Assembly: GCA_046346695.1 (NCBI GenBank)
Contig: JAXMHS010000004.1
Location: 98,085 to 162,084, forward strand
DNA: 64,000 nucleotides
Source of the DNA: Verrucomicrobiaceae bacterium
GTDB lineage: Bacteria > Verrucomicrobiota > Verrucomicrobiia > Verrucomicrobiales > Verrucomicrobiaceae
Direction of reading: 5' to 3'
Made by a program: the position numbers and the translations under genes
The notes under the pieces: generated by a model
Database searches by the model: none
What the model was told of the DNA's origin: nothing
The model's input: only the letters and a program-made list of their open reading frames with translations
Shown here: one piece after another, positions 33,320-53,973 of the stretch
How positions within the stretch are numbered: position 1 is the stretch's first letter
How the letters are laid out: the number at the start of each line of letters is the position of its first letter

Positions 33320-33467
33320 GAGATGGAGGGGTTGGGGGAATGTCGCTGCTAATAACGCCGATTCAGTCCAATATTCATCAGGAACCTGATGGTCGTTTCT
33401 GCCTTGGTTTTGGCTTCATCTCTGATCGGCGGCCAGCCGTATCTTGTGCCTTCCTTCATTATTTTTC

Positions 33468-34859
33468 ATGCCCCGCACTGTCCTGCACTGGTTCCGCCGC
33501 GATCTCCGCCTCACCGACAACACCGCGCTGCATCACGCCACGAAGGACGCGGAGCAGGTCATGCCGGTCTATGTCCTGAGCGATTGGAAAAACAGCCACG
33601 GCTGGACCGGCCCGAACCGCCAGCAGTTCCTCTGTGGCAACCTCGAATCCCTCGCGAAAAACCTCGAAACCATCAGCAGCCGCCTCATCATTCGCTGTGG
33701 GAAGGCCGATGCCGAACTGGAGCGCCTCGTTCGCGAGACGCAGGCTGGAGCGATCTACTTCAACCGCGACTACGATCCCTTTGGCCGCGCCATGGAAAAT
33801 AAGATCGCCGCGCTTTGCACGCGTCTCGGCATCGAGTGCCATGCATTCGACGACAGCGTCATGCACGCGCCCGAAACCGTGCTCACCGGCACCGGTCAGC
33901 CGTATCGCGTTTACACGCCCTACTCGAAGAACTGGCTCAATCTCGACAAGGCGGCCCCCCTGCCCCGTGTGGCCAACTTGGGACCGAAAGCCGGTGAAAA
34001 AATCACCAGCCTGCCCCTTCCCACGCTCGCGCATTGGAATCTCCCTGAGCCCACGGCGAACATCGTCGCATCAGGCGAACGTGCCGCCCGCGACCGCATG
34101 AAGCACTTCATCGAAGGCGGCATCCTCCAAGGCTACACCGCGAATCGCAACACGCCGGTGGGTCAAACGACCTCCCTGCTCAGCCAGGATCTGCGCTACG
34201 GCCTCATCGGCATCCGCGAGCTGTATGCGCGATGCGCCGCCCTCGAAAAAGCCAGCACCTACATCAAGGAACTCGCGTGGCGGGAGTTCTACTTCGCCAT
34301 CCTGTGGTTCTACCCGGAGGTCTTCGAGCATGAGTTCGCTCCCGACTGGCGCGGCCTGTCCTGGCCCGGCACCGAGGCCGACTTCCAGCGCTGGGCCACC
34401 GGCACCACCGGCTTTCCCATCGTCGATGCTGGCATGCGCCAGCTCTTGCAGACCGGACTCATGCACAACCGCCTCCGCATGATCACCGCCATGTTCCTGA
34501 CCAAGGATCTGCACTGCGACTGGCGCATGGGCGAGGCCTTCTTCATGCAGCAACTCGTCGATGGCGAAAACGCCAGCAACAACGGCGGCTGGCAATGGTC
34601 CGCCGGCACCGGCGCCGATGCTGCTCCTTACTTCCGCATCCAGAATCCCTGGCTGCAAAGCGCCCGCTTCGATCCCGCGGGCACCTACATCAAGCAATGG
34701 GTGCCCGAACTCAAGGACGTCCCCGCCCCGCTCCTCCACGAGCCACCCAAGCCCGGTCTCCCGCTCGCCCAAGGTTACCCGCTCCCCATGGTCGATCACC
34801 ACACCGAACGCGACCGTTGCCTCGCCATCTTCGCGAAGCACAAGGCGGAGCGGAGTTGA
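33468..34859 (+). CDS. phrB: Deoxyribodipyrimidine photolyase
   Basis: WFRRDLRLTDN, YRVYTPY, TSLLSQDLRYG, ELAWREF, TGFPIVDAGMRQL, MHNRLRM, NNGGWQWSAG. Confidence 0.95.
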   Translation: MPRTVLHWFRRDLRLTDNTALHHATKDAEQVMPVYVLSDWKNSHGWTGPNRQQFLCGNLESLAKNLETISSRLIIRCGKADAELERLVRETQAGAIYFNRDYDPFGRAMENKIAALCTRLGIECHAFDDSVMHAPETVLTGTGQPYRVYTPYSKNWLNLDKAAPLPRVANLGPKAGEKITSLPLPTLAHWNLPEPTANIVASGERAARDRMKHFIEGGILQGYTANRNTPVGQTTSLLSQDLRYGLIGIRELYARCAALEKASTYIKELAWREFYFAILWFYPEVFEHEFAPDWRGLSWPGTEADFQRWATGTTGFPIVDAGMRQLLQTGLMHNRLRMITAMFLTKDLHCDWRMGEAFFMQQLVDGENASNNGGWQWSAGTGADAAPYFRIQNPWLQSARFDPAGTYIKQWVPELKDVPAPLLHEPPKPGLPLAQGYPLPMVDHHTERDRCLAIFAKHKAERS

Positions 34860-35194
34860 TCGGGGAATCCCAGTTATCAGATCGCGGTTCTTGTGGGTTC
34901 ATCAAACCTGCTGGGATGGCCCAATCAAACGGCTTGTCATCGTTGCGTCTAGGCATCCTCCGTTCTTGGGCTGCCGTGCTTCAGATGGACCGCTCTTCGA
35001 GTTTGGGTTCAGGTTTGGGAATCATTTTCACCTTCCAATATCCGCCCACAGCGCGTAAACTGACAATTTTGTTGCCTGAGTACGGCATAGGAGGGTAAAT
35101 CGACACCCATGAACGAGAAATCCTGTACTCAGGCAACAAAAGCACTGGCTATAAAGCTGCTGACAAACACACGAATCTGTTAACCATCCGTACT

Positions 35195-35201
35195 GTTCGC
35201 C
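35195..35201 (+). other. Integron-type R' recombination core (GTTCGCC) opening cassette 1; possible attI remnant upstream
   Basis: Exact complement of the R'' box GGCGAAC that closes cassette 1 at 35800. Confidence 0.65.
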
Positions 35202-35210
35202 TAACTCAAC

Positions 35211-35777
35211 ATGCTGTCAGTGATTCAAGATGCCCTACAACCGCTTGTCGCAGAGGGCTTGATGCCTGGCGTGAGCCTTTGGGGAGCCTCGTTCTCGCCA
35301 TTCGACAAGACCACCGAGTTCCAAGCCTTCCGTCTTCATGGATGGGAGGGAACAGAGCTTCAGATTGGCGCATCAGACGCTATAGATTTCAAGACTACAG
35401 TCCCTGCTTGGCAGTATGAGGAGGATGGCGTCACTTACGATGAGCCAGAGACCATTCAGGAGCACGTATTCCGGTTCCTCGCCATTGAGCCGTTGAACAG
35501 CCGCGACTTGACTATTGCTGCGACACATGAGGTAGCATTGGGCACCGTGGAGGGCATAGATCTCTTGTATGCCAGCTACGAGATTCCTTTCCCCACCGGA
35601 ACTGAGATTCGTCGAGCCGTTGCAGGCCTTCGAGTGCGGATGGCAGAGGGCTACCTCGGAGGACACGAAGCCTCATTTGCCATCATACAGAAGCGGCCTG
35701 ATCACAGGCTTCGTATAGGTCCAGCTAGTCAGATCATGAGTGATTTACCATCACATTTCGAGCCGATTTCCCCATGA
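35211..35777 (+). CDS. Gene cassette 1: hypothetical protein (188 aa)
   Basis: ATG 10 nt after the R' box, followed by attC; atypical codon usage. Confidence 0.75.
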   Translation: MLSVIQDALQPLVAEGLMPGVSLWGASFSPFDKTTEFQAFRLHGWEGTELQIGASDAIDFKTTVPAWQYEEDGVTYDEPETIQEHVFRFLAIEPLNSRDLTIAATHEVALGTVEGIDLLYASYEIPFPTGTEIRRAVAGLRVRMAEGYLGGHEASFAIIQKRPDHRLRIGPASQIMSDLPSHFEPISP

Positions 35778-35799: not shown

Positions 35800-35892
35800 G
35801 GCGAACAAAACGGATGCAGGCAACGGCTCGAAGGCTATCTGTCGTGTCAGCAACGTCTCGCGCTCGCCGTCGCCTGATCCGAGACGTTCGCC
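35800..35892 (+). other. attC site 1 (93 bp)
   Basis: R'' GGCGAAC ... R' GTTCGCC; arms CGGAT[G]CAGGCAACGGC / GCCGTCGCCTGATCCG with an extrahelical G. Confidence 0.85.
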
Positions 35893-35909
35893 CAACTCAA
35901 CACGCCACT

Positions 35910-36836
35910 ATGGAGCAACCAGAGTCTTTGCCAGCTTTTGATCCGGTTGCCGCCGATGCGTTCTTTGCTGACCTGATTTCCCGCTATTCGAGTAGCGATG
36001 ACCAAATCATCAAAGATCTGGTGAGTTTTCACCCCCTTACACAGTTCGACGAGTCTGAGTATGTGAGACTACTGAATCTAAGTCTCTCGCTTGATGTCTC
36101 TGAGAAGAAGCGTGTGGTGGATGCCACCCCTACACTTTCGCAGTTTCAGATTGATGAGTTGCTCAAGGTTTTTCGAGAGGAACAGGAGCAGTTTGAGAGT
36201 CTGCGCCCCAAAGAGGGCGAAACCATTTCACAGCTTGAGGAACATAAGAAGACCGAGTGGGTAGCACTCAAGGAACTTTATATTGCAGAGCTCAAATCGA
36301 GGAGAGATGAGAATAGAAGGTCTGCGGAGTCTGCTCCAACAGATGCCGAGGTAAACACCATTCAGGCGTTTCTCAGCCCTTACAATGCTGAGATAGTTCG
36401 AGCATTGGCTCGACGTCCTGCGGACATTTACACACTAACGCCACGACAATTTGAGGTGCTAATGGCTGAGATTCTAAACGATTTGGGTTGGAGCATCGAA
36501 CTTACGCCAGAGTCTAAGGATGGAGGTCGAGATATTATTGCCACGATTCCTTTCGGCTCTTCGAAGCTTCTTGGATTAGTGGAGTGCAAGCGATATTCGC
36601 CCGATCATAAGGTGGGTTTAGAGATTGTTGAGAGATTTGCATATACTGTGAGAGACCGAGACAGGGCTAGCTTTGGCATGTTGGCTACATCATCCTACTT
36701 TACTCAAGGGGCGTGGAGTGCTGCACAACGCCACCAATGGCAGATGCAACTCCACGATTTCGATCACATTTGCCACCTTCTGAAGAATTATGGACATTAC
36801 AAACAAGATGCAAGGATGGCCTGCCCCCGGAAGTGA
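35910..36836 (+). CDS. Gene cassette 2: Mrr-like restriction endonuclease with helical N-terminal domain, 3' end clipped by IS
   Basis: RQFEVLMAEIL..LGW, SKDGGRDIIA, VECKRY (PD-(D/E)xK); the last residues MACPRK are IS-encoded. Confidence 0.85.
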   Translation: MEQPESLPAFDPVAADAFFADLISRYSSSDDQIIKDLVSFHPLTQFDESEYVRLLNLSLSLDVSEKKRVVDATPTLSQFQIDELLKVFREEQEQFESLRPKEGETISQLEEHKKTEWVALKELYIAELKSRRDENRRSAESAPTDAEVNTIQAFLSPYNAEIVRALARRPADIYTLTPRQFEVLMAEILNDLGWSIELTPESKDGGRDIIATIPFGSSKLLGLVECKRYSPDHKVGLEIVERFAYTVRDRDRASFGMLATSSYFTQGAWSAAQRHQWQMQLHDFDHICHLLKNYGHYKQDARMACPRK

Positions 36837-36841
36837 GACAG

Positions 36842-37777
36842 TCAAAAATGTAGTTTCAGCATCCTTGGTTTGTTGATGTTGGGTTTTTCTGTTGCGCTGT
36901 CAAACGCAGCGGAGGTCTCATCGAGCGTAGCGAGATGAGGCCGCAGCGAAGTTTGACAGCGTGCGGCCACCTCCGCCGGGGTTCGGTAGCCCAGCGAGCT
37001 GTGCGGCCGACATTCGTTGTACTCGTGCCGCCAGGCGTCGATGATCACCCTGGCTTCCGCCAGCGTGCCAAAGACTTCGCGGTTGAGGCACTCGTCGCGC
37101 AGCTTGTCGTGGAACGATTCGATATATGCGTTCTCCCACGGCGAGCCGGGCTTGATATAGAGCGTCTTGATGTGCTTCGCTGCGAGCCAGTCCTGGATGG
37201 CATACGCGACGAACTCCGGTCCGTTGTCACTGCGGATGTGCTCGGGCGTGCCGTGCTTGTGCATGGCCTGCTCCAGCACCATGAGCACATCCTGCGCACG
37301 GATCGACCACGCCACATGCGTGGCAAGGCATTGCCGCGTGTGCTCGTCGATGAGCGTCAGGATGCGGAACGCTCCTCCTGATTCGGTCTGGTCCATCACG
37401 AAGTCCCAGCTCCACACCTGGTTGCGCCGTGCGGCGCTCAGACGCTGTGCCTGGGATGGGCCAAGCCTGCGTGTGCGTCGCTGACGCTTGCGCACCTGCA
37501 GCCCTTCGGCACGTCTCACGCGTGCCACGCGCTTGGCGTTGATCCGCCTGCCTTCGCGTCTCAGCAGCGCGGTGATGCGCCGGTAGCCGTAGCGCGGATG
37601 CTGGCGGCTCAACTTCACGATGCGGTTGTTCATCCTCCGGCTGCCTTGACTCACTGCCTTCACGCGATAATAGCCCGAACGTGCCAGCCGCACCGCACGA
37701 CACGCCTGCGTGATCCTGCCAAGACCACTGTCCACCGCGCAGCGTGCCGCTTGGCGTTTGCTCGCCGGGCTCACCAT
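36842..37777 (-). CDS. IS3-family transposase OrfB (DDE integrase core)
   Basis: YGYRRI, WSWDF, IRSDNGPEF, PGSPWENAYIESF, EYNECRPHSSLG. Confidence 0.95.
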   Translation of the reverse strand: MVSPASKRQAARCAVDSGLGRITQACRAVRLARSGYYRVKAVSQGSRRMNNRIVKLSRQHPRYGYRRITALLRREGRRINAKRVARVRRAEGLQVRKRQRRTRRLGPSQAQRLSAARRNQVWSWDFVMDQTESGGAFRILTLIDEHTRQCLATHVAWSIRAQDVLMVLEQAMHKHGTPEHIRSDNGPEFVAYAIQDWLAAKHIKTLYIKPGSPWENAYIESFHDKLRDECLNREVFGTLAEARVIIDAWRHEYNECRPHSSLGYRTPAEVAARCQTSLRPHLATLDETSAAFDSATEKPNINKPRMLKLHF

Positions 37778-38037
37778 TTTTTTGCGTTCACGAACTTCAA
37801 GATGTCGATCTGCACGCTGAGGTCCGCGACGATGCGTTTGAGACGCGCGTTCTCTTCGGCAAGAGCACGCGCCTGCCTCAGCTCATCGACCTGCATCCCG
37901 CCGTATTTGCGCTTCCACCCGTAGTAGGTCTGCTCGCTGATGTTGTGCCGTGCGCACACCTCTTTGACCTTCATCCCACCCTGCGCTTCGCGCAGGATGC
38001 TCACGATCTTCTCCTCACTGTGTCTGCTCTTTTTCAT
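37771..38037 (-). CDS. IS3-family transposase OrfA (HTH)
   Basis: MKKSRHSEEKI..LRE..G..V..VC..H.IS..TYY.WKRKYGGM; joins OrfB by a -1 shift at GCA AAA AAA TGG. Confidence 0.95.
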   Translation of the reverse strand: MKKSRHSEEKIVSILREAQGGMKVKEVCARHNISEQTYYGWKRKYGGMQVDELRQARALAEENARLKRIVADLSVQIDILKFVNAKKW

Positions 38038-38156
38038 GTCGTTCTGTTCTCCTGGTTACGGAGCCAGAACTACATTTTACAACTGTCCTCTTTTCCGGGG
38101 GCAGGCCAAGGACGGGACTGTGGGTGTTTCCCAAGGGAGACATTGGCCATGAAAAG

Positions 38157-38346
38157 GGCGAACAAAGCGCTGGAGGCAACAGCGGGGGCTTGGGTGTCGG
38201 CGATGGTCTTCCGTAGCCCGACCGCAGGTGTCACACATCCTGCTGCCAGCCGCCTTCGCCCCCGGCAGGATGTGCGCCACCTGCTAGCGCCATCCCGTTT
38301 CCACGCTTTCCGCCGCCCCCGCCGTGCCTCAGCTTAATCGTTAGCC
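38157..38346 (+). other. attC site 2 (long, 190 bp)
   Basis: R'' GGCGAAC ... R' GTTAGCC; arms GCT[G]GAGGCAACAGCGGGGGC / GCCCCCGCCGTGCCTCAGC. Confidence 0.8.
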
Positions 38347-38356
38347 GTCACCACGC

Positions 38357-38758
38357 ATGTGGGGAGCACTCCAACACCCAAGACACGTCGAGTTCTATGA
38401 AGAGTTTCACGCTGGCAGGCAGAGTGACGACCAAGACTGGATGCCGATGGTCAGAGCAGTTCAGCATCTTCAGTCGCTTTCAGTCGCGCCCGGCCTTTAC
38501 GCATTCACTTCGCTCTGGCGGTTTCATCTCACGACCGCCCCGGCTTACCAGGAGTGCGACAGTCATTGTTCGGTCACTGTCATTTGGCGGTGGACCGACC
38601 GGCGTTTTCACATTGCGTTTGGTCGGCTCGCAGGCGGCTGGGTGGATGACCGACCACCGGAGCAGATTTGTGATGAATCTGGTTTTGCCGTTGTCATCGA
38701 GCCATTCATTCAGCGACTCTTGGCTTCGTCATCCGAGCATGGGAACCTAGACGGCTAA
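38357..38758 (+). CDS. Gene cassette 3: hypothetical protein (133 aa)
   Basis: ATG 10 nt after R' GTTAGCC; stop TAA lies inside R'' GGCTAAC. Confidence 0.75.
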   Translation: MWGALQHPRHVEFYEEFHAGRQSDDQDWMPMVRAVQHLQSLSVAPGLYAFTSLWRFHLTTAPAYQECDSHCSVTVIWRWTDRRFHIAFGRLAGGWVDDRPPEQICDESGFAVVIEPFIQRLLASSSEHGNLDG

Positions 38759-38814
38759 CCACGAGCGGCAGGCCGTCGCCGTTGCAATCCGACTTGTGGC
38801 CGCCTTCGTTGAGC
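38753..38814 (+). other. attC site 3 (short or degenerate, about 62 bp)
   Basis: R'' GGCTAAC ... R' GTTGAGC; GCGGC/GCCGC and GTCG/CGAC pairing. Confidence 0.55.
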
Positions 38815-38894
38815 TTGGACTTAAGTCAATCCCGTCACACACTGATCGCTCGAATGCTTGCCAGCGATGCCGGCGCGTGCGAGGGCGAATGTGC

Positions 38895-39791
38895 ATGATT
38901 TCTCGCTCTCTCATTGTTTTCGCCGTCGCTCTGATGTCCTCCAGCCTGTGCCCTGCGCAGATTCCCACGCACGAGAACGTCCCCTACGGCACGCATGAGA
39001 AGCAGGTGCTGGATTTCTGGCAGGCGAAGTCGGAGCAGGCGAAGACGCCGCTGCTGTTCTTCGTTCATGGCGGCGGGTGGTTGAACGGAGACAAGGCGAA
39101 TCCGGATTTTTTGGCGAAGTGCCTCGAAAACGGCATCTCGGTCGTCTCGATCAACTACCGCCTCATTTCGGACGCGCAGGCGGCGAAGATCGATCCGCCA
39201 GTGAAGGCGTGTCTGGACGATTCGGCGCGAGCGTTGCAGTTCGTGCGCAGCAAGGCGGACGAATGGCACATCGACAAGGAGCGCATCGGTGGCTGCGGGG
39301 GCTCGGCGGGTGGGTTCACGGTACTGTGGCTGGCGTTTTCACCCGACATGACCGATGCGAAGAGCGCGGACCCGGTTTCACGCGAATCGACCCGGTTGCG
39401 CTGCGTGATGGCCTTTGTGCCGCAGACCACGCTGGATCCGAAGCAGATGCAGGCGTGGATTCCGAACAACACGTATGGCAACCACGCCTTCGGTCTGCCG
39501 AGCATGGACGACTTCGTGGCGAAACGGGACGCGCTGCTGCCGTGGATCGAGCGTTTCTCGCCCTATGCACTCGCCTCGAATGACGATCCGCCGGTGCTGC
39601 TCTTCTACGACAACCCGCCGAACCTCGGCCAGCCCTACAAAGACCCGCCGCACAGCGGAAACTTCGGCGCGGGCATCGCGGAGAAGCTCAAGGCCGTCGG
39701 CATCGAGCACGAGATCAATTACAACAACGATTACGCGCACATGCGCTGGCCGGATTTGTTCGGCTTCATCGCGGAAAAGCTCAAGAAGTGA
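38895..39791 (+). CDS. Secreted alpha/beta hydrolase (esterase/lipase-like)
   Basis: Signal peptide; FVHGGGW, VSINYRL, GGSAGG. Confidence 0.88.
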   Translation: MISRSLIVFAVALMSSSLCPAQIPTHENVPYGTHEKQVLDFWQAKSEQAKTPLLFFVHGGGWLNGDKANPDFLAKCLENGISVVSINYRLISDAQAAKIDPPVKACLDDSARALQFVRSKADEWHIDKERIGGCGGSAGGFTVLWLAFSPDMTDAKSADPVSRESTRLRCVMAFVPQTTLDPKQMQAWIPNNTYGNHAFGLPSMDDFVAKRDALLPWIERFSPYALASNDDPPVLLFYDNPPNLGQPYKDPPHSGNFGAGIAEKLKAVGIEHEINYNNDYAHMRWPDLFGFIAEKLKK

Positions 39792-49132: not shown

Positions 49133-49165
49133 GACGTTGCGTTGCCTGCATCCGTTTTGTTCGTC
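49133..49165 (-). other. Decayed attC half-site, same family as attC1
   Basis: CGAACAAAACGGATGCAGGCAACG (24 nt) identical to 35802-35825, then GCAACGTC as in attC1 after an internal deletion. Confidence 0.7.
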
Positions 49166-51846: not shown

Positions 51847-53973
51847 ATGAACTATAAATCAAAAAAATCCAGCTACGACAACAGCCTATTTACTCTGCGT
51901 TTCATGGGTGATGGTGGCCTGCCCCCGGAAGTGAGACAGTCAAAAATGTAGTTTCAGCATCCTTGGTTTGTTGATGTTGGGTTTTTCTGTTGCGCTGTCA
52001 AACGCAGCGGAGGTCTCATCGAGCGTAGCGAGATGAGGCCGCAGCGAAGTTTGACAGCGTGCGGCCACCTCCGCCGGGGTTCGGTAGCCCAGCGAGCTGT
52101 GCGGCCGACATTCGTTGTACTCGTGCCGCCAGGCGTCGATGATCACCCTGGCTTCCGCCAGCGTGCCAAAGACTTCGCGGTTGAGGCACTCGTCGCGCAG
52201 CTTGTCGTGGAACGATTCGATATATGCGTTCTCCCACGGCGAGCCGGGCTTGATATAGAGCGTCTTGATGTGCTTCGCTGCGAGCCAGTCCTGGATGGCA
52301 TACGCGACGAACTCCGGTCCGTTGTCACTGCGGATGTGCTCGGGCGTGCCGTGCTTGTGCATGGCCTGCTCCAGCACCATGAGCACATCCTGCGCACGGA
52401 TCACCACGCCACATGCGTGGCAAGGCATTGCCGCGTGTGCTCGTCGATGAGCGTCAGGATGCGGAACGCTCCTCCTGATTCGGTCTGGTCCATCACGAAG
52501 TCCCAGCTCCACACCTGGTTGCGCCGTGCGGCGCTCAGACGCTGTGCCTGATAATAAGCCTGCGTGTGCGTCGCTGACGCTTGCGCACCTGCAGCCCTTC
52601 GGCACGTCTCACGCGTGCCACGCGCTTGGCGTTGATCCGCCTGCCTTCGCGTCTCAGCAGCGCGGTGATGCGCCGGTAGCCGTAGCGCGGATGCTGGCGG
52701 CTCAACTTCACGATGCGGTTGTTCATCCTCCGGCTGCCTTGACTCACTGCCTTCACGCGATAATAGCCCGAACGTGCCAGCCGCACCGCACGACACGCCT
52801 GCGTGATCCTGCCAAGACCACTGTCCACCGCGCAGCGTGCCGCTTGGCGTTTGCTCGCCGGGCTCACCATTTTTTGCGTTCACGAACTTCAAGATGTCGA
52901 TCTGCACGCTGAGGTCCGCGACGATGCGTTTGAGACGCGCGTTCTCTTCGGCAAGAGCACGCGCCTGCCTCAGCTCATCGACCTGCATCCCGCCGTATTT
53001 GCGCTTCCACCCGTAGTAGGTCTGCTCGCTGATGTTGTGCCGTGCGCACACCTCTTTGACCTTCATCCCACCCTGCGCTTCGCGCAGGATGCTCACGATC
53101 TTCTCCTCACTGTGTCTGCTCTTTTTCATGTCGTTCTGTTCTCCTGGTTACGGAGCCAGAACTACATTTTACAACTGTCCTCTTTTCCGGGGGCAGGCCA
53201 ATGGCTTTGATTTGCACGGAGCAAGCATCTACGACTTGGGGATTGCTTTCATGACGTTCCAGAGATTGCTGAACAAGACCTTTCTCTTGACGCGAGATCG
53301 CTTGGAAAAAGGTGCTTTCCCAAAGCGAGACGAACGCCAGTTGTTGGCTCTACAGATCGGCGAAAGGCGGAAAGCTTCTGATGGATACGGCCTTCTGCCA
53401 TTGCTCACTGATCCGACAAATCTTCAGATTCTTCGCTTTGTCGGAGAACAACTAATGGCCGGACTCTTTGGCTATTATGTTCAGGACATCATGAAGCGTC
53501 TCAAACGTGAAGAGAACGACGAAAAGAGGTTCTTTATCGGCTCAATTCATGCAGAAGTTGTGAACATCGTCGGACGAATTGACGCGGCAGGAGGAATCGG
53601 GGCGCTCGAAATAGGTGCTCCTGGAATCAGCCATGCCAAGCCAGTGTTGTTCACAGAAGAAACAAAAAAGTACGTCAACAAGCTCTCCAAAGAACACTTT
53701 CTCGGCCCAAAGCAGACAATTCGTGGAAAACTTGTTAAACTATTGCCAGGGGCGGGCGTGATCGAAATTAACAGCCGTGGACGCGGCAAGGTAAAGGTTC
53801 ATGTAGACACCGAGATTTTCGATCGAGTCCGCTTCGATAAATCTCGATCTGACATGTTGGAGTTTGTGGGACGCCCCATTTTCCCGCTTGGAGCACAATC
53901 ACAGAAGGTTTACGAGTTAGAAGCCTCTGACGTGCGCGTACTTGAGCCAGACCCGACCGATGGAAATTGGTAA
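51847..53973 (+). pseudogene. Unknown 278-aa gene interrupted by IS copy 2
   Basis: Removing the IS and one ATGG TSD restores one frame: MNYKSKKSSYDNSLFTLRFMGDG-FDLHGASIYDLGIAF...PDPTDGNW* (837 nt). Confidence 0.85.
51915..53200 (-). mobile_element. IS3-family (IS407-group-like) copy 2, 1286 bp, frameshifted
   Basis: Same IRs; TSD ATGG (51911-14 / 53201-04); 6 nt shorter than copy 1 (A7 to A6, a 1-nt deletion, and a 10-to-6-nt replacement). Confidence 0.95.

Follow-up and report, generated by a model that had tools for sequence, protein, structure and literature searches.

A cassette-borne Mrr-type nuclease gene with an unnamed helical N-terminal module, interrupted by an IS3-family element in a Verrucomicrobiaceae bacterium

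The stretch of DNA analysed here, hereafter the window, comprises 64,000 nucleotides of the genome of a Verrucomicrobiaceae bacterium (GenBank assembly GCA_046346695.1, contig JAXMHS010000004.1, positions 98,085 to 162,084) and carries a gene cassette whose single open reading frame (ORF) joins an acidic, helical N-terminal module to a C-terminal Mrr_cat nuclease domain. The 3' end of this ORF is separated from the remainder by an insertion sequence (IS) of the IS3 family. Based on profile searches, structure models and genome comparisons, it was proposed, with slightly better than even confidence, that the module may regulate or assemble the nuclease and that the protein may serve as a single-gene effector of defence or abortive infection and not as a modification-reading enzyme. 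In the proposed mechanism, the C-terminal PD-(D/E)xK domain, with its intact E...D...ExK site, would cut DNA. The fused front part, in which a conserved head of three helices is combined with a ~60-residue helix, an acidic linker and the junction motif 'E.EIR...L', could hold the nuclease inactive until the head engages a partner; alternatively, engagement of the head could lead to assembly of the nuclease domains through oligomerisation of the long helix. Either way the protein would be a self-contained effector. In this genome the IS3-family element has replaced a conserved (S/T)GLW(V/I)FP tail by MACPRK.

With respect to the libraries and literature examined, the novelty lies in the unnamed module together with its three-way distribution, whereas nuclease, cassette and IS are each of an ordinary kind. 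The module represents an unannotated domain family that links three previously unconnected settings, namely a conserved hypothetical protein with its named members in Patescibacteria, the repeats of giant proteins that combine a signal transduction ATPase with numerous domains (STAND), an FGE-sulfatase domain (FGS) and SIR2, and a rare Mrr nuclease carried by an integron cassette. Should the nuclease be under the control of the module, a cassette as small as this one, with a single gene, would be a tractable means of learning what is sensed or bound by the module, and it could offer insight into the function of the far larger STAND proteins. In addition, the locus records integron-type cassette turnover and an IS strike in an integrase-less verrucomicrobial array.

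The nuclease domain and its relation to known endonucleases

Mrr_cat-type PD-(D/E)xK motifs had been noticed in the C-terminal half in an original prediction made from the sequence without database searches, and the comparison with nuclease profiles bears this out. Pfam Mrr_cat (PF04471) matches with an E value of 8.8e-22 (77.8 bits, cut-off 21) over profile positions 2-115 of 115, and an alignment of 23 homologous sequences shows no variation at E182, D204, G206, D208, E225, C226, K227 and R228. The E...D...ExK residues are the signature of active PD-(D/E)xK enzymes and, as read from the sequence, are intact here, and the domain is predicted to cleave DNA. The AlphaFold2 (AF2) model of the domain has a predicted local distance difference test score (pLDDT) of ~90; AspBHI and MspJI are the closest structures to it in Foldseek (E value 5.5e-7), and AspBHI was also found by a profile search of the PDB with the nuclease family (E value 2.6e-4). 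PADLOC models match within the nuclease domain only, and comprise mREase_IV (2.5e-10), PDC-S02 (2e-9, residues 179-306 against no more than the C-terminal third of the model), the Mrr-like nuclease of ZorD (1.4e-4) and mREase_II. Plasmid and phage relatives detected by tblastn are covered over residues ~155-294 only, and the profile search of genome contigs returned only relatives of the C-terminal domain, for example one in a Brevifollis metagenome-assembled genome.

From these matches the protein could be taken for one of the ordinary modification-dependent (Type IV) endonucleases such as Mrr and MspJI, with a new reader of DNA or of its modifications as its N-terminal half. The best PADLOC models, mREase_IV and mREase_II, would agree with such an enzyme, as would the modification dependence of the nearest solved structures, the annotation of plasmid homologues of the C-terminal domain as 'restriction endonuclease', and the occurrence of a lone gene without a methyltransferase, which suits Type IV logic. 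However, all such matches are restricted to the catalytic domain, and neither the Mrr_N winged helix nor any other DNA-binding family was found in Pfam scans of the whole protein or of the N-terminal half alone (E value up to 10). The N-terminal half also lacks an SRA-like beta domain, its acidic (pI 4.56) and all-helical character is unfavourable for DNA binding, and the module occurs in nuclease-free proteins as well, both in STAND arrays and as small stand-alone proteins. A Type IV enzyme with a new reader domain is therefore considered unlikely.

The comparison with characterized enzymes leads to a similar assignment. The E. coli Type IV Mrr shares with the cassette protein the C-terminal catalytic domain, with the full profile and the D...ExK residues, whereas the cassette protein has, in place of the Mrr_N winged helix, the acidic helical module and carries an extra (S/T)GLW(V/I)FP tail. 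MspJI and AspBHI (4F0P and 4OC8; Type IIM/IV) share the catalytic domain and the layout of an N-terminal part followed by a C-terminal nuclease. Their N-terminal domain flips 5-methylcytosine and has an SRA-like beta fold, whereas that of the cassette protein is all-helical and has no structural match. The catalytic domain, as judged from sequence, belongs to Mrr_cat; because the N-terminal domains of both families were looked for and not found, the protein is placed outside the full-length Mrr and MspJI families. Likewise, the likeness to PDC-S02 and to the C-terminal Mrr-like nuclease of ZorD lies in the nuclease-domain profile matches, whereas the N-terminal parts are unrelated and neither Zorya genes nor other partner genes are present.

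A restriction endonuclease (REase) fold that lacks catalytic activity and senses nucleic acids, like the NACHT-associated NA-iREase1 domains, is very improbable. The corresponding Pfam profile (PF22722) does exceed its cut-off (30.9 bits against 27), and the module is linked to STAND proteins; the score of this profile is nevertheless far below that of Mrr_cat, and E182, D204, D208, E225 and K227 are invariant across the 23 homologues. Moreover, the surroundings contain no NACHT or STAND gene, and the genome has none that carries the module. With its catalytic residues kept and no NACHT/STAND neighbour, membership of the protein in NA-iREase1 was rejected.

The N-terminal module, its distribution and its possible role

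The N-terminal half had been described at first as an acidic helical domain that could not be assigned. Its acidity (pI 4.56) and its all-alpha character in the AF2 model agree with that description; it is still without a named family or fold, yet it proves to belong to a large unnamed domain family. The module is defined by the motif FDE..(F/Y)..LL..S.SL...EKK.V....P.LSQ.QIDEL..VF.EE., and its AF2 model, which was based on an alignment of 65 sequences, reaches a pLDDT of 96.5 and shows three short helices and, after them, one of ~60 residues. In the close homologue P0003 the N-terminal segment is present twice, which delimits a unit of ~95 residues. No match to the module was found in NCBIfam, PHROGs or PADLOC, and none in Pfam at an E value up to 10; the Pfam models include effector-associated domains (EADs) and death-like domains. 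Weak matches to Spindle_Spc25 and HamB were taken as noise. In Foldseek, a check that had been suggested for each half, the C-terminal half led to AspBHI and MspJI, whereas the N-terminal half gave no fold relative better than an E value of 3 in the PDB and BFVD, a search that the long helix may hamper.

A profile of the module was searched against 1.84 billion representative proteins, the results being counted as representatives at 50% clustering. It recovered 616 representatives at an E value up to 1e-3 (250 of them at up to 1e-10). The first setting of the module consists of giant proteins of 1000-2400 residues with 2-7 tandem modules. Among 27 large module proteins that were scanned, NB-ARC and FGE-sulfatase domains were each found in 15, SIR2_2 in 8 and CHAT in 2, while others contain TPR or HisKA; in P0030 from Sorangium, annotated as 'SIR2 family protein', the order is NB-ARC, FGE-sulfatase, three modules and SIR2. 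The second setting consists of many small proteins of 100-280 residues, hundreds of which are stand-alone; their N-terminus is of low complexity and is followed by a single module, an acidic coil and, conserved at the C-terminus, ...EIRKxLGL. For these a second search gave 843 clusters, in which the only named entries were 'hypothetical protein' records of Patescibacteria, Gracilibacteria and Peregrinibacteria. The third setting is that of the rare Mrr fusions (P0001-P0005 and P0027), in which the junction keeps 'E.EIR.I..FL.P.N'; the retention of this motif indicates a putative fusion of the whole small protein onto the nuclease. The native nuclease has 336 residues here and ~313-350 in its relatives, and the closest intact homologue is P0002 (73% identity). 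A scan of IMG/VR with the module pattern found no copy in viral contigs.

The recurrence of the module in arrays between the FGE-sulfatase sensor and the SIR2 effector of NB-ARC STAND proteins is the reason why a regulatory or assembly role is suggested for it in the cassette protein, and from domain associations of this kind we infer an anti-phage or defence role. Counter-invader systems of the STAND NTPase-FGS type have been described (PMC8195603), and the effectors catalogued for related systems include Mrr-clade REases (PMC7159879, section 11). The resemblance to the STAND-FGS/EAD systems of Kaur, Burroughs, Iyer and Aravind (PMC7159879, PMC8195603) lies in the presence of the module in giants with NB-ARC and FGE-sulfatase domains (with SIR2, CHAT or TPR) and, as in EAD-effectors, in a small helical domain that is N-terminal to a REase effector. 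In contrast to those systems, the module lies C-terminal to the FGS in tandem arrays and not at the N-terminus of the NTPase, it matches no Pfam domain model, and most members of its family are small stand-alone proteins. An EAD is recognised by the same domain on an effector and an NTPase in one genome or neighbourhood, whereas here the module occurs once in the genome and has no conserved NTPase neighbour.

A single Rosetta-stone hint towards a partner came from P0025, in which a DUF87/HerA-type ATPase carries the module at its C-terminus; this ATPase is 36% identical to a divergent DUF87 ATPase adjoining the module-Mrr gene of P0005. The gene of P0005 lies in a mobile element with Replic_Relax and a DnaG-type primase, with the divergent DUF87/HerA-type ATPase on one side and, on the other, a 1402-residue UvrD/AAA_11/AAA_12 helicase and an N6_N4 methyltransferase; this context may be a defence island.

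Several observations weigh against the proposed regulation or assembly of a defence nuclease by the module. Fusions of effector domains to the small module proteins are rare, and their genes sit amid housekeeping genes such as thyA, ligA, ribosomal protein genes and those of the methylerythritol phosphate pathway. Since the head of the module is very strongly conserved, including in these housekeeping-context small proteins, the named ones of which are from Patescibacteria, a conserved component of the cell is a likelier ligand for it than a phage protein. In its own genome the module has no partner that carries the same module, so that an adaptor role would be without a counterpart there. No neighbouring gene is conserved among the homologues, the contexts of which differ, and the downstream ORF in the window has no relation to those that follow P0002 and P0003. 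Finally, two of the ~six members of the Mrr-fusion family, the present gene and P0003, have been disrupted independently; this suggests a cost of the nuclease or relaxed selection on it, and may be simple decay. The gene of P0003 (L002/L003/L004 6001-7400) is frameshifted within the nuclease core, the same sequence being found in five contigs from several samples, and its +2 frame continues the family sequence to ...TGLWVYPGS and a stop codon.

A more specific role in bacterial innate immunity was also considered, in which the module would be an undescribed domain in wide use for recognition or as bait and the cassette protein a one-chain 'decoy-plus-nuclease'. Here, a conserved small protein that is best represented in Patescibacteria, episymbionts of the candidate phyla radiation, would have been copied as tandem arrays into NB-ARC-FGE-sulfatase-SIR2 receptors and, as a whole, onto the Mrr nuclease, and binding of an invader factor to the module would unleash cleavage, in likeness to the integrated decoys of plant nucleotide-binding leucine-rich repeat receptors. 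This role is regarded as rather improbable. The control or assembly of the nuclease through its module is the reading that is preferred.

The cassette, the insertion sequence and the present state of the gene

The gene had been predicted to be borne on a cassette, and this was substantiated by flanking attC hairpins, R boxes in register and different cassettes at the same locus of a sister genome, on the strength of which the gene is read as a true integron-type cassette (Table 1). The R' box of attC1, the site of the upstream cassette, places the 5' end of the Mrr cassette at 35886/35887. The cassette thus delimited is 2454 bp long at present and measures 1158 bp once the IS and one copy of the target-site duplication (TSD) are removed. 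The bottom strand of attC1 folds with -25.9 kcal/mol (z=-2.86, none of 200 shuffles as good) into a hairpin with a 7-bp R box, an unpaired spacer of 3-4 nt, an L box with one bulged base and a long stem; its extra bases are on the R''/L'' arm, as they are in canonical attC sites. The cassette's own attC2 folds with -54.3 kcal/mol (z=-3.36, again none of 200 shuffles as good). Its 5' end has 14 of 16 nt in common with attC1, while the site as a whole occurs only once in the genome and does not resemble the resident attC family. The strongest evidence for a cassette is that its first six bases, TTCGCC, are complementary to R'' (GGCGAAC) of its own attC2, and that the same relation holds in three consecutive cassettes (TTCGCC/GGCGAAC in the first and in the Mrr cassette, TTAGCC/GGCTAAC in the third); this register is the one that excision and re-integration at G/TT would give.

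Table 1. Features of the Mrr-like gene cassette and related sites (window positions; positions with the prefixes C1, C2 and C4 are genome positions)
Feature	Position	Strand	Remarks
attC1, of upstream cassette	35800-35892	+	93 nt; R' G/TTCGCC 35886-35892
Mrr-like gene cassette	35887-38340	+	one ORF and own attC2
Nuclease gene, 5' part	35910-36816	+	codons 1-302 and first base of codon 303; public gene call P0001
N-terminal helical module (aa 30-140)	35997-36329	+	predicted; profile search, AF2 model
Mrr_cat PD-(D/E)xK nuclease domain (aa 174-291)	36429-36782	+	E182, D204, D208, E225-C-K227
AGGA target-site duplication, left copy	36813-36816		
IS3-family insertion sequence	36817-38108	-	1292 bp
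IS orfB	36842-37777	-	rve/rve_3
IS orfA	37771-38037	-	HTH_Tnp_1
A7 slippery run	37777-37783		frameshift site at orfA/orfB overlap
AGGA target-site duplication, right copy	38109-38112		
Displaced nuclease 3' end	38113-38216	+	remainder of codon 303 to codon 336 and TAG stop
attC2, the cassette's own site	38157-38346	+	190 nt; R'' GGCGAAC 38157-38163, R' GTTAGCC 38340-38346
Other attC1-family clusters	C2:654253-656728; C1:1072147-1076560; C4:389939-391300; C4:63072-66521		

At the same locus of the sister genome (G106), where the photolyase and esterase genes that border the array are 89% and 88% identical, two different cassette ORFs are found; behind one of them lies an attC with 94% identity to attC1, and the other shows the register TTATGC/GCATAAC (L027). 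In the resident genome, attC1 belongs to a family of ~18 copies in several clusters. No intact IntI was found in the 96%-complete assembly, where the best match to TIGR02249 scores 80 bits against a cut-off of 265, and the array was for this reason classified as a cluster of attC sites lacking integrases (CALIN); the intI gene and attI site that would adjoin the array in a complete integron are absent. Outside the window, 36 kb to its left, an intI remnant of ~50 residues (C4:62098-62244) adjoins an attC cluster, and the two together look like a decayed integron platform. The low GC content of the nuclease ORF (0.479 against 0.592 for the window) and the rarity of the module, which is present in no more than 2 of 145 family genomes and in 1 of 401 phylum genomes, argue for a foreign, presumably horizontally acquired, cassette. 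As for the homologues, no convincing R''/R' pair was recognised by eye beside P0002, so that the family is not always cassette-borne.

Integron cassettes that encode phage defence are established (bioRxiv 10.1101/2024.07.02.601719). Like defence cassettes and CALINs in the IntegronFinder concept, the present one comprises a single promoterless ORF with its own attC, in an array of variable content with no adjacent intI; it differs from them in its verrucomicrobial host, in the unusually long attC2 (190 nt) and in its interruption by an IS, and its defence role is a predicted one.

The element that interrupts the gene was assigned to the IS3 family by a -1 frameshift between orfA and orfB, a DDE transposase of the rve type, TG...CA inverted repeats and a short TSD. 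It possesses orfA and orfB with an A7 run, HTH_Tnp_1 and rve domains, terminal inverted repeats (TGGCCTGCCCCCGGAA..., 21 nt, 90%) and 4-bp TSDs, and orfB scores 254 bits against NCBIfam transpos_IS3 (NF033516, cut-off 160). Three copies exist in the genome, and since each of the other two is flanked by its own 4-bp duplication, AGGA is taken as a genuine TSD. The copy at C5:525423-526714 is 100% identical (TSD ACCG), which suggests that the element moved recently. The copy at 51915-53200 of the window is 99% identical (TSD ATGG); it differs from that in the nuclease gene by two 1-nt deletions and a short indel, and its transposase is probably defective.

It had been claimed that removal of the IS and one AGGA restores a frame of 336 residues, and this was reproduced exactly: the flanks join into such a frame with the stop codon at 38214-38216, within the 190-nt attC2 hairpin. 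The first residues encoded 3' of the IS, TGLWVFPK, are those of the C-terminus of P0002 (..TGLWVFPKA and stop), and the tail motif (S/T)GLW(V/I)F also ends P0004-P0007. Because TGLWVFPK equals the C-terminus of the intact homologue, the restored frame is far beyond chance; beyond these residues it is a low-complexity read-through into attC2. In its interrupted form the ORF runs from ATG 35910 to TGA 36834-36836 on the forward strand and encodes 308 residues, the last of which, MACPRK, are supplied by the IS. The database gene call P0001, also of 308 residues, uses the identical start codon, and the alignment with P0002 begins at residue 1. An alternative start at 35814, which would give 340 residues, was rejected as unlikely, as it would fall within attC1.

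The insertion lies after codon 302, 11 codons past the end of the Pfam Mrr_cat domain, and the catalytic residues are kept, in agreement with the earlier statement that the catalytic core is left intact. The further expectation that the protein may still function is weakened by the loss of the conserved tail, by the failure to find a promoter for this integrase-less array and by the frameshifted P0003. As the conserved tail has been exchanged for MACPRK, the gene is probably attenuated or silent in this genome.

It is possible, although doubtful, that the gene is simply dead now, in that a nuclease that is costly or useless in this host has been inactivated. The IS deletes a tail that is conserved in the subfamily, the array has no integrase and no detected promoter, the homologue P0003 is frameshifted in its nuclease core in five contigs, and the IS has been active recently, as judged from its 100% identical copies. 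On the other hand, 302 native codons are open, all catalytic residues and the full Pfam domain are kept, and the promoter scan, with its E. coli-type consensus, carries little weight in Verrucomicrobia. The insertion is also recent, so that decay would be invisible either way.

Other features of the array and its surroundings

The array coincides with a stretch of low G+C content (0.47-0.55 against ~0.60 in the flanks) between the photolyase gene (33444-34859) and the esterase gene (~38890-39791), an interval that contains three short ORFs and one IS. The neighbouring cassette ORFs at 35211-35777 (188 residues) and 38357-38758 (133 residues) have no matches in Pfam, NCBIfam, PADLOC or PHROGs. 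The sites at the outer ends, attC0 (~35131-35201) and attC3 (38753-38814), have R boxes that pair and hairpin energies that are not significant (z ~-0.3 to -0.6), and they were treated as weak or decayed sites. In the sister genome, the cassette ORFs at 1390-3715 of L027 encode 218 and ~235 residues and were assigned to no family. The signal-peptide region of the esterase differs between the sister genome and the window, which implies that the right end of the array extends into the 5' end of the esterase gene.

The intI remnant (..NQALNALVFLCRQVL..RAKHHKRLPVVL) is part of the region C4:61525-62319 on the reverse strand, where it runs into a repetitive frame; right next to it, on the opposite strand, the attC cluster at C4:63072-66521 comprises three attC1-family sites. 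Just 3' of the photolyase gene, at 35067-35141, a 22-bp stem (91% complementary) with a 31-nt loop was observed, in which the order TTTTGTTGCC...GGCAACAAAA is the opposite of the R''/R' layout of attC sites. At 49140-49165 on the reverse strand, directly past a stop codon, the left arm of attC1 survives as a relic with 25 of 26 nt identical.

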